64,000 nt of DNA from Acidimicrobiia bacterium (GTDB lineage: Bacteria > Actinomycetota > Acidimicrobiia > Spongiisociales > UBA4744). Within the stretch, counting starts at the first letter, position 1. Each line of letters begins with the position of its first letter. The stretch lies in assembly GCA_029863625.1 (NCBI GenBank), contig JAOTUY010000001.1, positions 82,046 to 146,045 on the forward strand, written 5' to 3'. The position numbers and the translations under genes were made by a program. The notes beneath the pieces are model-generated. The model had not been told where the DNA came from. It saw nothing but the letters and a program-made list of their open reading frames with translations, and searched no databases. Positions 5,920 to 43,052 of the stretch are shown here, piece after piece.

Positions 5920-6044
5920 CCTCCGAGCCTACTGCCGGCGATGATGCTGATTGCGGAGTACGACGAGGTGTGCCCGGCGGAACCTCCGGGGTAGGGCAAG
6001 CGTTGAGGGGCAGTACCATGAACGCTTGACCAAGCGGGGGATCG

Positions 6045-6827: not shown

Positions 6828-7119
6828 GCGAAGCACCGGACAGCCGGAGGAGAGGGCGACGATGCGCTTTCTGCTCTTCAATCGTCGTGGTTGTGCCCGT
6901 GTGCTGCGCCCGAACCGGGCGCGTCGGGACCTTTTCAACAACCGGGCTCGCCGTGATTCCCGCAGCAATCCGATCGGTTCTTGAGTTTGATGGCGTTGTT
7001 CTTGGCTACGAGCGCCAGCTTCTCCAGAAACGGGAGATCCGAATTACGCCAGTTACCGACGACATGGCGGGGATGGGGTCGATTCATGGGCTGAACCTAG
7101 TCCGCCGCTCGATCGGCCG

Positions 7120-8556
7120 TCAGTTCTCGATGTACCGCAGCTGGCTCACCAGGTATTCGACGTGGTCGGGCCCGTACGATGACCACACGCGATAGAGGCA
7201 GCCGGGATGCTCGGCCACCTCGATGAGCGCCAGGTAGGCCTCTGGAGCCAATGCACCGGTCTCCGGGTCGAGATGCACGATCCGGTCGGCGGGCAGATCC
7301 ATACTGAGCTCCGGAAAGACCCAAACGTTGCTTCCATCATCGAAACGCAGCGTTGGATTCCATTCCTGCTGGTAGAAACCCTCGTGTTGCCACAAGCTCG
7401 TTCCGAATGCGCCCCGTCCGCAGTCCGCGCAGTAATCACCCGAGCCGTAGCGACCCGGCCCATCGGGAAGGTCCCAGGCGACGATTAGGGCGCTGTCACC
7501 GTTGGCCCGGCGGGCGGTGGCTCCTTCGCCCTCAGGCCCCAGATCGGCCAAACCCATCATCGGGCAGACCGTGGTGCCGAGGTCTTCGGCCCACTCTTCG
7601 AAGAACACCGACGGGACCTTCGAAGAGGCGAGTCCGGTCCGGTGCCAGGGTGCTTCACCCGGCTCACGGGTCTCGATGGTGGCGGGGTCGACGAGTGCCA
7701 CGGGCTCGGCTTGCATTCCCTCAACGAACCGAAGCGAGTTGAGCAGCGTCATGAGGTGTTCCTCACCGAGGAACGACCAGACGTTGTAGAGACAACCCTG
7801 ACCTTCGACCAACAGGTAGCTCAGCGCGGGAGCGCCCGAGCCGGGTTGCTCCAGGCCTTCCAGGCCATAGCCCGCCCGGCTGCCGTCATCCCAGGCGATG
7901 CGATCGACCCAGATATTCAGATCGTTGATGGTGCCGGTGATATCTGCTCCGGCCACCCCGTAGGCACCCCGGCCACAGTCCGGGCAATAGCCGCTGTCCC
8001 GGGACCGTCCCGGACCATCAGGGAGATCCCAGGCTACGGCCCACCCGCCGCTGAAATCGGCGGACCGGCTGACGCCGCCGGCGCTCAGTTCGAGGGGATC
8101 TGCCGGGTACAGTACCGAGCACCACATCTGATTCTCGGCCGTCGCCCAATCCTCGATGAGATGTTGCGGTATGGCCGCTTGGGGAAGAGGCTCGGCCGAC
8201 CAGGGTGCGACCCCTCCAGCGGTCGCACCGTTGCCGTTGAGGACTGCAGCGGTAGTGGTCGTCGTCGACCCCGGTTCGGTGGTGGTCGTGGCCGAGGGGT
8301 CCAACGTCGTGGTGGTCGAAACCTGGTTCACAGCCGGTTCGTCTGTTCCGCTCGGCAGGATCGTGGTCGCCAGCGCCACGGCGGTCAGGACAATGGCCAT
8401 GGAAGCCAGGCCCAGGGCCGGGCCCGAGAGGCGGAACCGGCGAGGTGAGCGACCCGCCATGATTCGGCTTGCCGTTCCAAGAGGGGCTCCCGGGAGGTCC
8501 TTGGGGTCGACGGGATTGGACTTCCGGACTCGATCAAAGGCATCGTCGGTATTCAT
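7120..8556 (-). CDS. Putative membrane-anchored anti-sigma factor with a duplicated CxxC-containing extracytoplasmic domain
   Basis: Sits immediately downstream of the ECF sigma gene with a 4-nt ATGA overlap. Short cytoplasmic N-terminus, one TM (LGLASMAIVLTAVALATTIL), Thr-rich linker. Two homologous roughly 130-aa repeats each carry WDLPDGPGR..YC(P/A)DCGRGA(Y/F)G. Confidence 0.55.
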   Translation of the reverse strand: MNTDDAFDRVRKSNPVDPKDLPGAPLGTASRIMAGRSPRRFRLSGPALGLASMAIVLTAVALATTILPSGTDEPAVNQVSTTTTLDPSATTTTEPGSTTTTTAAVLNGNGATAGGVAPWSAEPLPQAAIPQHLIEDWATAENQMWCSVLYPADPLELSAGGVSRSADFSGGWAVAWDLPDGPGRSRDSGYCPDCGRGAYGVAGADITGTINDLNIWVDRIAWDDGSRAGYGLEGLEQPGSGAPALSYLLVEGQGCLYNVWSFLGEEHLMTLLNSLRFVEGMQAEPVALVDPATIETREPGEAPWHRTGLASSKVPSVFFEEWAEDLGTTVCPMMGLADLGPEGEGATARRANGDSALIVAWDLPDGPGRYGSGDYCADCGRGAFGTSLWQHEGFYQQEWNPTLRFDDGSNVWVFPELSMDLPADRIVHLDPETGALAPEAYLALIEVAEHPGCLYRVWSSYGPDHVEYLVSQLRYIEN

Positions 8557-39247: not shown

Positions 39248-40498
39248 TCAGCCGTCTCTTTCGGCCAGCTCCCGGAACTCATCCGGCACTGCGCCGGTCT
39301 CGGACAGGGCGACCGAGGCATACCCAACGGCCTTTCGTCCGAACCGATCCCGTACCCCGTCGACCGACCGGTCGAGTGCCCAGAGAGCGGCGCCGGCGAC
39401 GGTGCCCGGGCGCCGTTTCTCCTCGCCGATATCGATGGGAAGTTCGAGCTGCAATGCTGCCTCGTAGACCAGGTGCGAAACAGAGATCGCCAGAAGCGTG
39501 ATCACCCGTTCTTGCGGATGATCGTTCAAGGCCGTGGTCACGAGGGAATACGCCACCTCAGCGAGAATCGGGGTGGCCGAGATGGCCGCGGGAAGGGTGA
39601 TCGATCTGGTTACCGACTGCATTTCCGCGAAACGCACCCTGACCGTGACGGTCTTGCCCGCTCGCTCCTTGGCGCGCAAGCGGGTCGCTACCCGGTCGGC
39701 GAGATGGCGCAGCGTCATGCGGATCAGCGTGGTGGATATCGGCTTACGGCCCAGTGCCGACTGAGCGCCAACCGACCCGGCCCGGTGCGTCGTCTCGATG
39801 GCGCGGGGGTCCTGGTTCCAGGCCAGCGATCCGAGTTTGGTGCCGACGGCTCGCCCCAGCAGGTTTTCGAGTGACCGGCCGGGGGTGGCGGCGAGCTCGC
39901 CGATCGTTGTGATGCCCCGTTCGGCCAGACGGGCCTGAGTAACGGGACCGACCCCCCACATGAGACCAACCGGCAGGGGGTGAAGGAAATCCAACTCTTG
40001 CTCGGGTTCAACGACGATGTACCCGTCGGGTTTGGCCACCTGAGAGGCAATCTTGGCGAGATGCTTGGTGCGGGCGACACCCACCGACACCGGTAGCCCT
40101 GCCTCCTGACGGGTGCGTCGCCGTATCTCGATGGCCATCGACTTCGGTGAACCAAACAAATGTATGGAGCCGGCCACCTCGAGGAAGGCTTCGTCGATGG
40201 AGATTCTCTCCACCAGCGGGGTGAAGTCTCGCATGATGTCGATCACCTGATCGCCCAGGCGTTGGTATTCGGAGAAGTGACCACCAACGAATCTCAGATC
40301 GGGGCAGAGCTCACGGGCCCGGCGCCCGGCCATGCCCCCTCGGACTCCGTACTTTTTGGCTTCGTAGGAGGCGGCCAGCACTACGCCGCCCCCGACCGCG
40401 ATCGGTTTCCCGCGCAGTGACGGATCGAGGAGTTGCTCCACCGACGCATAGAAGGCGTCGAGGTCGGCGTGCAGAATGGTGGCTGCGGCCGTAGCCAT
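39248..40498 (-). CDS. dinB: DNA polymerase IV (Y-family)
   Basis: ILHADLDAFYASVEQ, SIDEAFLEV and little-finger domain. ATG at 40498. A LexA box lies 16 nt upstream. Confidence 0.85.
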   Translation of the reverse strand: MATAAATILHADLDAFYASVEQLLDPSLRGKPIAVGGGVVLAASYEAKKYGVRGGMAGRRARELCPDLRFVGGHFSEYQRLGDQVIDIMRDFTPLVERISIDEAFLEVAGSIHLFGSPKSMAIEIRRRTRQEAGLPVSVGVARTKHLAKIASQVAKPDGYIVVEPEQELDFLHPLPVGLMWGVGPVTQARLAERGITTIGELAATPGRSLENLLGRAVGTKLGSLAWNQDPRAIETTHRAGSVGAQSALGRKPISTTLIRMTLRHLADRVATRLRAKERAGKTVTVRVRFAEMQSVTRSITLPAAISATPILAEVAYSLVTTALNDHPQERVITLLAISVSHLVYEAALQLELPIDIGEEKRRPGTVAGAALWALDRSVDGVRDRFGRKAVGYASVALSETGAVPDEFRELAERDG

Positions 40499-40513
40499 AT
40501 ACGGGCATCCTAA

Positions 40514-40529
40514 TCGAACATATGTTCGA
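40514..40529. promoter_or_regulatory. LexA (SOS) box TCGAAC-ATAT-GTTCGA
   Basis: Perfect match to the mycobacterial/actinobacterial SOS-box consensus TCGAAC-N4-GTTCGA, directly upstream of dinB. Confidence 0.7.
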
Positions 40530-40973
40530 TTGCTTTGAAACCCAAGGCCGTGGTCTTGGCGTAGAGATCCCAAGCCCCGCTGGCCGAACTTGAACATTAG
40601 GACAAGGCCGACTGCCGCCGCGATCCCAAAGGTCGCTCCGGTCGTGGGAGCTCCGGCGGACACCAGGGCTGCCGCCGCCCCTCCAAAGAAGATGATCTCC
40701 ACGGCGACCCGCGCCGATTCCCCAGTCGCTTGGACGCCTTGGGGGCGATGAACCTACCCAAGATGCTGGCGGCCACAAGGGGGCGACCACACCCAGGAGG
40801 ATTCGTGTGGTCGCGTTTGGCCCGGTCTGCCAGCCCCAATAGGCCAGCCCGGCCAGCGCGCCAAGCTGGAGTAGGAATCGCAGAGCGAGGTTGATCGACT
40901 TCACAGGGAACATCGTGCCACCAGGTGTCGGGTGGGGGTTGTCGGGTGCATCTGCAGGCTGTTGTTGAACCAA

Positions 40974-41008
40974 GAATGAATGAACGTTCATAATGAACAT
41001 TCATTCAT
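40974..41008. promoter_or_regulatory. 35-bp near-perfect palindrome (AATGAACGTTCAT / AATGAACATTCAT units); putative repressor operator
   Basis: GAATGAATGAACGTTCATAATGAACATTCATTCAT seen directly. Lies 15-50 nt upstream of the SDR start at 41023. Confidence 0.5.
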
Positions 41009-41022
41009 GGAAGGACCTCATC

Positions 41023-41967
41023 ATGGCCTGGACGGCCGACGATATTCCCGATCAGACGGGACGGGTCGTGGTAGTAACCGGTGCCAATGGAGGTTTGGGT
41101 CTCGAGACGGCCCGCCAGTTAGCGCGCCACGGCGCCCTCGTCATCATGGCCGCCCGCAACCTCGAGAAGGCCCGAACTGCCGAGCAGGACATTCTCTCGG
41201 GAACCCCGGCCGCCTCTCTGGAAGTCCGATCGCTCGACTTGGCCTCACTCGACTCGGTCCGGCAGTTCGCCGGCGCGGTCACGGCGGACCATCCGGTCAT
41301 CGACATCCTGGTCAACAACGCTGGAGTGATGGCTCCTCCCCGGCGAGAGACTGCCGACGGTTTCGAGCTTCAGTTCGGTACCAACCATCTCGGCCACTTC
41401 GTCCTTACCGGCCTGCTCATGCCCGCCTTGCTCCGTTCGAAAGCGGGGCGGGTCGTGACCGTCACCAGCACCGGGCGGCACGTGGGAGGGCGCCTCAATG
41501 TCGATGATCCTCACTACAAATCGGACTATCAGCCGTGGACCTCGTACGGCCAGTCGAAGATGGCCAACTTGCACTTCGGCGTCGAGTTGAACCGCCGCTT
41601 GCAAGCCGCCGGTACTACCGTCGAGAGCCTTGTTTCCCATCCCGGCTTCTCGAATACCGACCTTCAGGCACAGAGTGTGGAGGCCACCGGCGGTGGTGTG
41701 AGCCAGCGGTTCTTCCATGTCGCGGTCGGCTGGTTCGGGATGACCCCGGCCCGGGGAGCTTTGCCACAGCTGCGGGCCGCCACCGACCCGACGGCCAAGG
41801 GTGGGGAGCTGTACACCCCTCGTTGGGCAAATCGGGGTTCGCCCGTTCGTAGACCGATCCTCGCCAGGTCCCGCAAACCCGAGGATATGCAGGCGCTCTG
41901 GGAGCTGTCCGAGCGAGAGACCGGGATCCCGTTTGATGTTGAGGGTCTTGTGAAGGGAGCCGATTGA
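41023..41967 (+). CDS. Short-chain dehydrogenase/reductase (SDR) family oxidoreductase
   Basis: VVVVTGANGGLG and NNAG match the SDR family. The second-domain YGQSK is YxxxK. Start chosen at MAWTADDIPDQTGR. Confidence 0.8.
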   Translation: MAWTADDIPDQTGRVVVVTGANGGLGLETARQLARHGALVIMAARNLEKARTAEQDILSGTPAASLEVRSLDLASLDSVRQFAGAVTADHPVIDILVNNAGVMAPPRRETADGFELQFGTNHLGHFVLTGLLMPALLRSKAGRVVTVTSTGRHVGGRLNVDDPHYKSDYQPWTSYGQSKMANLHFGVELNRRLQAAGTTVESLVSHPGFSNTDLQAQSVEATGGGVSQRFFHVAVGWFGMTPARGALPQLRAATDPTAKGGELYTPRWANRGSPVRRPILARSRKPEDMQALWELSERETGIPFDVEGLVKGAD

Positions 41968-42221
41968 GCCCGGTCACGGTACGGGTCGACCGGGCGGCCC
42001 TGGTCGGGGCATTGCTCGAACTCGTGGCCGAACGCGGGTTTCAGGTGACGTCGATGGCGGCGGTGGCCGAACGAGCCGGGGTGGCCCCCGGCGCGGCCTA
42101 TGTGCGCCACGCCTCCAAGATGAGCTTGTCTGGGCGACCTATCTGGAACAAACCGCTCCTCGTCGATCTGCCGATGCTGGTCCTGTACGACCAGGGGATC
42201 GGACCGGCTGTCAGCGTGTGA
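41964..42221 (+). pseudogene. TetR-family regulator, frameshifted and truncated (HTH domain only)
   Basis: Canonical TetR HTH FQVTSMAAVAERAGVAPGAAYVRHASK. The expected continuation DELVWATYLEQ is in the +2 frame, consistent with a 1-nt deletion at about 42119. The opposite-strand gene begins at 42261, so a full-length TetR cannot fit. Confidence 0.6.
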
Positions 42222-42260
42222 TCGACGACGGCGTGTTTAGACATCACACCCGGGCGCCCT

Positions 42261-43052
42261 TCAGATCGAAGCGGCGAGTTCGGCCACCAGGGTCGCCGCG
42301 TTGGCCACTACCGGTTCACCGTGGCCGAACACGACTGTGTCGAACCGGTAGCCCGCCAGTTTCTTCACCGAGCGATTAGCGGAATCCATGTCGGGCGAGA
42401 ATTGGGGGTTCGCTCCGATCACTCCGCCGTTCGCTCCGTTCAACGCGTCGCCGGCAATGAGCAGGCTGGCGTCGGCCGAGAGCACGCTGATGTGACCCGG
42501 TGTATGACCGGGAGTCTCGATGATTTCGAGGTCGAACACGTGGTCGCCGTCCCCAACGGACACCAGCGACCGGGGTGAGGTGATAGCGGCCAGATCCCCG
42601 GCCCCGGCGTAGCCGGTGGCGTCAACGGCGGCTGCCATGACCGCAGGCAGGCTCCCTTGATGGTCTCCGTGACGGTGGGTGAGGATCACGTGGCCGACCG
42701 CACCCCAGTCCAGGCCGAGTGATATCAGTCCTGCCTCGATATCCGGCTCGCTGTTCTCCACCCCGGTGTCGACGATGGCTGCCTCTCCGCCTCGAACCAC
42801 GATGTAGGCCGAAACAAAGCCAAGATTGACTCGCTGCCAGGCGACGCCGCTGGTGGCCGGCGGCGCTGTGGTGGTGGTTGTGTCAGGCGCAGTCGTGGTC
42901 GAGTTGGATTCCCCGGGGATCGAAGTAGCGGACGAGACGGTGTCGAGAGATTCGTCGGGGTCGGCACAGGCCGACAGCCCGAGCACCGCCAGGGCGAGCG
43001 TGCCCCGGCCGAGGTCGTAGAGGAAGCCTCGTCGACTGATGCCCGGGTGCAT
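42261..43052 (-). CDS. MBL-fold metallo-hydrolase, probable Tat-exported lipoprotein
   Basis: MHPGISRRGFLYDLGRGTLALAVLGLSAC (RR motif plus lipobox), LTHRHGDHQG. ATG at 43052 with AGGAGA Shine-Dalgarno. Confidence 0.75.
   Translation of the reverse strand: MHPGISRRGFLYDLGRGTLALAVLGLSACADPDESLDTVSSATSIPGESNSTTTAPDTTTTTAPPATSGVAWQRVNLGFVSAYIVVRGGEAAIVDTGVENSEPDIEAGLISLGLDWGAVGHVILTHRHGDHQGSLPAVMAAAVDATGYAGAGDLAAITSPRSLVSVGDGDHVFDLEIIETPGHTPGHISVLSADASLLIAGDALNGANGGVIGANPQFSPDMDSANRSVKKLAGYRFDTVVFGHGEPVVANAATLVAELAASI

Follow-up and report, generated by a model that had tools for sequence, protein, structure and literature searches.

What is the long palindrome that precedes an SDR oxidoreductase gene in the genome of this uncultured Acidimicrobiia bacterium, and which protein, if any, still binds it? 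A sequence-only reading took it for an operator and pointed out that the single nearby regulator gene, a TetR-family member downstream of the SDR gene, looked broken. The present analysis covers the 64-kb stretch of DNA around the locus (hereafter, the window) and orthologous loci from other contigs. Judging by its sequence and that of its relatives, the palindrome is a genuine regulatory element, as had been proposed, and one of an ordinary kind, namely putative tandem TetR operators on a promoter. The reading that we consider probable is that these operators lie over a sigma-70-type promoter of an SDR-tetR operon, that the TetR gene has decayed, and that the operators are most likely orphaned, with the SDR promoter constitutively open.

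The palindrome and the predicted SDR promoter

The 35-mer GAATGAATGAACGTTCATAATGAACATTCATTCAT occupies positions 40974-41008, as noted earlier, and its near-perfect self-complementarity is confirmed: it contains an inverted repeat with arms of 16 nt each (40976-40991 and 40993-41008) that lie 1 nt apart and are complementary at 15 of 16 positions (94%). No other inverted repeat in the window pairs two 16-nt arms at 15 or more positions across a loop of at most 3 nt, and a comparable repeat appears in 1 of 300 windows simulated with a first-order Markov model. The GC content of the palindrome is 0.37, compared to about 0.65 in the surroundings. The previously reported distance from the SDR gene is also correct, the palindrome spanning -49 to -15 relative to the start codon, ATG 41023. 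The features of the locus on the SDR side are as follows.

40965-40970, plus strand: -35-like hexamer TTGAAC (consensus scan)
40976-40991, no strand assigned: O1, ATGAATGAACGTTCAT, a 16-bp dyad of the form 6-4-6 that matches the consensus ATGAAYGNNCRTTCAT exactly; left arm of the inverted repeat
40989-40994, plus strand: -10-like hexamer CATAAT, to which O1 contributes its final 3 nt, O2 its initial 2 nt and the linker the A at 40992 that joins them
40993-41008, no strand assigned: O2, ATGAACATTCATTCAT, a 16-bp dyad that departs from ATGAAYGNNCRTTCAT at 1 position; right arm of the inverted repeat
41009-41015, plus strand: ribosome-binding site GGAAGGA, 7 nt ahead of the SDR start codon (sequence read)
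41023-41967, plus strand: SDR oxidoreductase gene, 314 aa (Pfam adh_short, E = 6e-29; NCBIfam PRK06197, E = 1e-100)
41964-42221, plus strand: TetR pseudogene, an 85-codon remnant ORF with a TTG start and a match to TetR_N, overlapping the SDR stop codon by 4 nt

A consensus scan identifies TTGAAC-18-CATAAT as the sole promoter-like (sigma-70) match in the region 40500-42400. In this predicted promoter, O1 fills the spacer between the -35 and -10 elements, the junction of O1 and O2 is the -10 element itself, and O2 covers the predicted transcription start near 41001, so that the site would lie over the core promoter; the same layout is kept in 13 aligned orthologous promoters and in the additional locus L211. 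Gene calls in six independent contigs agree on 314 aa for the SDR protein, which is 100% identical to the MAG proteins MDH3259464.1 and MDH3398244.1 (NCBI). The suggestion that the ATG triplets within the palindrome serve as alternative SDR starts does not hold. These triplets belong to the operator half-site ATGAAY, and both their frame and their distance to the conserved SDR N-terminus, M-x-W-T/S, differ among orthologues; the ribosome-binding site precedes ATG 41023, where the gene callers also place the start, and a GGAGG-like site is found in the same position among the orthologues. Past the TetR remnant lie a metallo-beta-lactamase-fold gene and an aldo/keto-reductase gene, in convergent orientation.

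On the upstream side, a DUF2568 gene (40585-40913, minus strand) starts at 40913 and is divergent from the SDR gene. Two frameshifts, near 40775 and 40715, interrupt the DUF2568 gene, and the repaired protein corresponds to a full-length Pfam DUF2568 domain (E = 4e-21). The broken sequence is present in independent contigs as well, and SNPs between contigs cluster there (40798, 40806 and 40814). Beyond this pseudogene, also on the minus strand, is dinB, with a called start at 40498, about 460 bp from the palindrome. The palindrome had been described as lying immediately downstream of the dinB SOS region; it is not adjacent to that region because about 445 bp and the DUF2568 pseudogene separate it from the LexA box at 40514-40529.

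The vicinity of dinB raises the question of whether the palindrome is itself a pair of LexA (SOS) boxes. The resemblance to the actinobacterial LexA box, TCGAAC-N4-GTTCGA, is real: both are 16-bp dyads of 6-4-6 geometry, and each dyad of the palindrome comes close to the GAAC-N4-GTTC core (GAAT-N4-GTTC and GAAC-N4-ATTC). However, each core carries a mismatch, and the conserved outer bases are AT...AT here rather than TC...GA. Furthermore, dinB has a perfect actinobacterial box of its own, TCGAACATATGTTCGA at 40514-40529, which is located 16-31 nt upstream of its start and is the only match in the window, and the sites orthologous to the palindrome accompany SDR and TetR genes rather than SOS genes, with no dinB nearby in loci L091, L211, L212 and L213. 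A role of the palindrome as a LexA site is thus very improbable.

Another proposal was that the palindrome is a structural terminator for transcription divergent at dinB. A scan does flag a terminator-like hairpin on the minus strand, and the predicted folding energies are -19.6 kcal/mol on the plus strand and -22.2 kcal/mol on the minus strand, with z of about -2.6 to -2.9. An intrinsic terminator has a G+C-rich stem, a U-tract and a gene 3' end, whereas here G-C pairs make up only 4 of the 15 stem pairs, the tail TCTTGGTTCA contains no U-tract, and both flanking genes diverge from the region, so that no gene ends there. Any other RNA hairpin faces the difficulty that a transcript begun at the predicted start, inside O2, would contain only part of the hairpin; in addition, relatives conserve a pair of 16-bp dyads and not a 33-bp stem. 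An Rfam scan of 40400-41400 yields no match at the palindrome, the only hit being a sub-threshold one to CcsR1 away from the site. We consider a terminator or RNA hairpin extremely unlikely. A MerR-type promoter, with a single dyad in a spacer of 19-20 bp and an adjacent MerR gene, was also considered and rejected: the locus has two dyads and a shorter spacer of 17-18 bp, and its neighbouring genes include no MerR.

Two 16-bp dyads and their association with TetR genes

The sequence-only reading parsed the palindrome into two 13-mers, AATGAAC(G/A)TTCAT. The two copies exist (ATGAACGTTCAT at 40980 and ATGAACATTCAT at 40993), but their register is not conserved in relatives, and the conserved unit is 16 bp long. 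A search of the window for the 12/13-mer with up to 2 mismatches finds the two known copies and otherwise only chance-level matches (8 observed versus 4.1 expected), and a search of 86 SDR loci for the 12-mer gives almost no matches; these near-empty scans led to the reparsing of the palindrome into 16-bp units. Locus L091 lacks the 12-mer ATGAACGTTCAT and contains ATGAACGCTCGTTCAT in its place, but its 16-bp register, -35 and -10 elements all align with those of the window. When anchored on the -35 element, the -10 element and the start codon, the promoters of L090, L091 and the window form a gapless alignment (each line gives the -35 element with the following gap, O1, the linker and O2).

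L091: TTGACA-atga, ATGAACGCTCGTTCAT, a, ATGAACAAACATTCAT
L090: TTGACT-taga, ATGAATGAACGTTCAG, a, ATGAATAAACGTTCAT
Window: TTGAAC-caaga, ATGAATGAACGTTCAT, a, ATGAACATTCATTCAT

This alignment implies that the conserved unit is a 16-bp dyad of the 6-4-6 form, present in two copies. Orthologous promoters contain, twice, the form ATGAAY-N4-RTTCAT, and the starts of O1 and O2 are 17 bp apart both in the window and in all orthologues with two sites. The single mismatch of O2 to the consensus, A at position 7, is common to L090 and L091. O1 and O2 are within the range of palindromic dyads, about 15-17 bp, that is typical of TetR operators. The 13-mers are seen in the window because the 4-bp spacers (GAAC and ATTC) chance to resemble half-sites, and the 33-bp palindrome is the automatic outcome of two similar palindromic sites lying side by side.

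A metagenome scan for ATGAAYNNNNRTTCANNATGAAYNNNNRTTCAT matched at least 119 loci and, among the matches listed, 13 sit directly upstream of SDR orthologues that are 50-64% identical to the SDR protein of the window. The sites of these pattern-fetched SDR loci yield the consensus ATGAAYGNNCRTTCAT, and a TetR orthologue is encoded in 11 of the 11 such loci with enough downstream sequence. In the 13 aligned orthologous promoters, most have TTGACN 4-5 nt before O1, which results in a spacer of 17-18 nt, and two have the weaker TTGCGT and TTGCGG; the -10 junction CAT-N-AT is conserved in the aligned operator-bearing orthologues, with CAG-A-AT in L090 and L097.

Loci retrieved by other means agree. 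L090 and L091 (SDR 75% and 76% identical, respectively), which were fetched by SDR homology, show the two-dyad layout between -28 and -64 relative to the SDR start codon and encode an intact TetR of 190 aa (TetR_N and TetR_HI_0893_C domains) that overlaps the SDR stop codon. Three more loci, L211, L212 and L213, were fetched by TetR homology, so that their selection was blind to the motif; all three are SDR-TetR operons with sites at the matching position (two perfect sites in L211, two core sites in L213 and one site in L212). Altogether, an O1 site in the same register is found upstream of the SDR gene in L090, L091, L211, L213 and the 13 pattern-fetched SDR-TetR loci, and the operator layout spans SDR orthologues of 50-76% identity with an intact TetR of 185-190 aa encoded after the SDR gene. 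For loci that were not chosen by the motif, and that are phylogenetically non-independent, the presence of the TetR gene and of the site is distributed as follows.

TetR present, site present: 6 loci
TetR present, site absent: 1 locus (L087, its TetR gene frameshifted)
TetR absent, site present: 1 locus (L007, a lineage with a TetR remnant)
TetR absent, site absent: 73 loci

The association for these non-independent loci (Fisher p = 1.5e-7), together with the 11 of 11 pattern-fetched loci, demonstrates co-occurrence of site and regulator gene across genomes. On the protein side, 12 TetR orthologues with an overall identity of 41-73% share the recognition helix GVATGTAYVHY with little or no variation, which parallels the invariant half-site. 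The occurrence of SDR-TetR operons with the operator in relatives supports, at the level of sequence comparison, the earlier identification of the TetR at 41964 as the likely cognate regulator.

These comparisons also bear on the notion that the region is simply an AT-rich promoter with accidental symmetry, or that it arose by a recent local duplication and has no role in binding. The -10 element is indeed embedded in the palindrome, and the two units do resemble a 13-bp tandem duplication. Yet a palindrome of this kind arose in 1 of 300 simulations, and the position, spacing and sequence of the dyads are kept in SDR orthologues with as little as 50% identity, exclusively where TetR accompanies them. 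We therefore give this explanation very little weight.

The mechanism that would follow for the relatives is a conventional one. In the TetR family, induction occurs by release of the repressor from its operator upon ligand binding. The TetR encoded directly after the SDR gene, with a 4-nt overlap, would bind each dyad as a dimer; dimers on O1 and O2 would occlude the -10 element and the transcription start and block RNA polymerase; and a small ligand would release TetR, making the SDR-tetR operon autoregulated and inducible. In five loci (L097, L152, L157, L169 and L192), a putative zinc-type alcohol-dehydrogenase-like gene is divergent from the operator-bearing intergenic region, and in these the TetR protein may control both the SDR gene and the divergent gene.

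Decay of the TetR gene and fate of the operators

Intact TetR genes of 185-190 aa adjoin the site in the orthologous loci, whereas the window contains a decayed remnant only. A tblastn search with the intact 190-aa orthologue finds homology limited to 41964-42128 (residues 1-56) and 42153-42218 (residues 142-163), and a DNA alignment reveals a 3-nt deletion, a 1-nt deletion that causes a frameshift, an internal deletion of about 233 nt and loss of the 3' end. The earlier impression of a frameshift is therefore correct, and the damage extends beyond it to a large internal deletion, truncation at the 3' end and a degraded recognition helix. The remnant helix reads VAPGAAYVRH versus VATGTAYVHY in the orthologues; six invariant or near-invariant TetR positions are changed or deleted in the remnant, including T to P, T to A, H to R and Y to H in the recognition helix. 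As its start codon the remnant has TTG, versus GTG or ATG in L087, L090 and L091. Six independently assembled contigs (L001-L006) carry this same 85-aa ORF and operator, and each differs from the window by 0-5 SNPs; since the same lesions recur in six independent assemblies, they are real.

The most likely consequence of this decay is an orphaned operator and a derepressed SDR promoter. The orphaned state, which the sequence-only reading had raised as a possibility, thus becomes the leading interpretation, and the SDR-linked operator is probably without its regulator protein in this bacterium.

Two related lineages have lost the repressor as well. In L087 (SDR 86% identical), the TetR gene is disrupted, having lost 5 nt and gained 1 nt in the part that encodes helices alpha-1/alpha-2, and the operator has decayed (6945-7510 and 5940-6000). 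In L007 (SDR 81% identical), about 100 nt of the TetR gene are left, with 1-nt and approximately 26-nt deletions followed by loss of homology (6942-7060 and 5950-6000), and the operators have decayed to the point that one recognisable dyad remains. The TetR lesions differ among the window, L087 and L007, and only the lineage of the window retains consensus operators, so that the order of decay in L087 and L007 is opposite to that in the window. The different lesions suggest either that the repressor was lost repeatedly or that selection was relaxed from the common ancestor onward.

The retention of the operators could alternatively mean that they are still in use, with the SDR gene kept under control in trans by a paralogue from the same TetR subfamily whose gene lies at another place in the genome. 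Several observations are in line with this scenario. O1 and O2 fit the consensus as well as the sites in genomes with an intact TetR do, whereas the sites in the TetR-less sister lineages L087 and L007 are degraded, which could hint at ongoing selection in the window; the subfamily is abundant (900 proteins at E <= 1e-15 among the candidates scored); and the same sample contains an SDR-TetR module whose TetR is 63% identical (L213). However, the 64-kb window contains neither a second TetR-family gene nor a further operator site, and the assembly and the accession numbers assign the TetR of the same sample to another MAG (GCA_029863205.1; MDH3306209 versus MDH3259464 and MDH3398244). Furthermore, the nucleotide identity to orthologues is 72-83% for the TetR remnant and 72-82% for the SDR gene; because the remnant is no less similar than the SDR gene, the loss of TetR may be recent, in which case the intact operator requires no special explanation. 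On balance, we regard continued use of the operators by a trans-acting paralogue as unlikely. That the 85-aa remnant, with only its helix-turn-helix part, could itself be the regulator is far less likely, given that it lacks the dimerisation and ligand domain and is substituted at invariant helix positions.

There are no SNPs in the 58-bp promoter among the six near-identical contigs, but at 0-5 SNPs per contig this comparison has no power on operator selection. A rough neutral expectation is 1-3 changes at the 24 constrained operator positions versus 0 observed, which is not significantly different; with an expectation this low, the intactness of the operator is statistically uninformative. 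It is rather improbable that the operator pair has been maintained by selection after the death of its repressor, be it through a paralogous TetR in trans or through another acquired role. If it were true, an operator kept by selection would represent a natural snapshot of regulatory rewiring.

Related systems and significance

The closest characterised system is FadR (YsiA) of Bacillus, a TetR-family protein whose monomers read ATGA(A/G)T, with a dimer per 16-bp inverted repeat and two dimers on one promoter-proximal operator; the base contacts are made by Gly and Tyr of the GTxY motif in helix alpha-3 (PMC5397183). The half-site hexamers match, as ATGAAT/ATGAAC in the 6-4-6 form in the SDR-linked sites, and the GTxY motif of FadR aligns with GTAY of the SDR-linked TetR. 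The differences are in the arrangement of the sites, the effector domain and the targets. The 16-bp repeats of FadR overlap with a 4-bp offset, forming the 21-bp box WTGAATGAMTANTCATTCAN, whereas those at the SDR promoter adjoin each other, with an offset of 17 bp between starts; the effector domain of FadR is PF08359 (TetR_C_4) and that of the SDR-linked TetR is PF22604 (TetR_HI_0893_C); and FadR targets fatty-acid degradation genes as opposed to a single SDR gene. Assignment to FadR and its regulon is rejected on account of the PF22604 domain in place of PF08359 and of the NCBIfam FadR score, 36 bits against a cut-off of 200. In the metagenome scan, double sites of the pattern also adjoin TetR-family genes in lower-GC contigs (L098 1081-1113, L112 856-888 and L160 4646-4678). 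The TetR gene of L098 encodes a TetR_C_4 domain like that of YsiA/FadR, which agrees with the box described for Bacillus FadR (PMC5397183), whereas that of L112 has TetR_N only, with a weak AefR-like match; L160 belongs to the same cluster.

As BetI is the top NCBIfam match of the TetR N-terminus, the BetI box ATTGACG*CGTCAAT (PMC12442346) was considered as the closest operator and discarded because its half-site differs. The nearest solved structures to the SDR-linked TetR are those of uncharacterised TetR proteins (3he0, 3f1b and 3qkx/HI_0893). TetR-family systems with a divergently encoded regulator share with the SDR locus a palindromic operator over the -10 element and transcription start of the adjacent target, a regulator gene beside the target and two dimers per operator region, the last of these being a proposal in the present case. 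They differ in that the SDR-linked regulator would be co-transcribed downstream of its target and, in this genome, is a pseudogene.

The same scan reveals a second, much larger class of the two-dyad architecture with ANNT/GNNT-type spacers, for example ATGAACAGGCGTTCAT-T-ATGAACGGATGTTCAT. Members of this class are found in L117 (2092-2124), in L095, L108, L119 and L125, and in at least about 80 other loci of the scan; they lie 165-189 nt upstream of a conserved ORF of 74-82 aa (MKDWCDEDGAKRLREKISAYWAERGYEVDVDL...VPAMRSARTDVRSNMVNGMPRR), with a tRNA gene on the other side. The ORF has no significant Pfam or NCBIfam match, and its leader of about 170 nt is conserved and has no Rfam match. The contigs, some of them from TARA samples, have a GC content of 0.5-0.66. 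Two identical copies of the double site ATGAATCGAGGTTCAGAATGAATCTATATTCAT lie on the same strand, about 1.9 kb apart, in each of L118 (5862-5894 and 7768-7800) and L123 (148-180 and 2054-2086), and the site is also present in L146 (794-826); this duplication suggests a repeated or mobile unit.

The SDR locus does not reveal a new class of mechanism; what is mildly interesting is that the operator has probably been orphaned and that three sister lineages have lost its regulator. It also serves as a caution that a long palindrome can be merely two adjacent dyads. For this Acidimicrobiia lineage, it would represent a clean natural case in which the regulator is gone and the operator is kept, with the sister lineages showing the alternative order of decay. 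For the family, the comparison defines an operator composed of two ATGAAYGNNCRTTCAT dyads, the second starting 17 bp after the first, and a predicted promoter layout for an abundant, uncharacterised TetR subfamily of the TetR_HI_0893_C type and ties this subfamily to PRK06197-type SDR genes in Actinomycetota; within the literature searched, no paper contains the variants of the operator motif that were searched for. The practical value is modest, in that the subfamily may offer a candidate ligand-responsive switch for biosensor mining.
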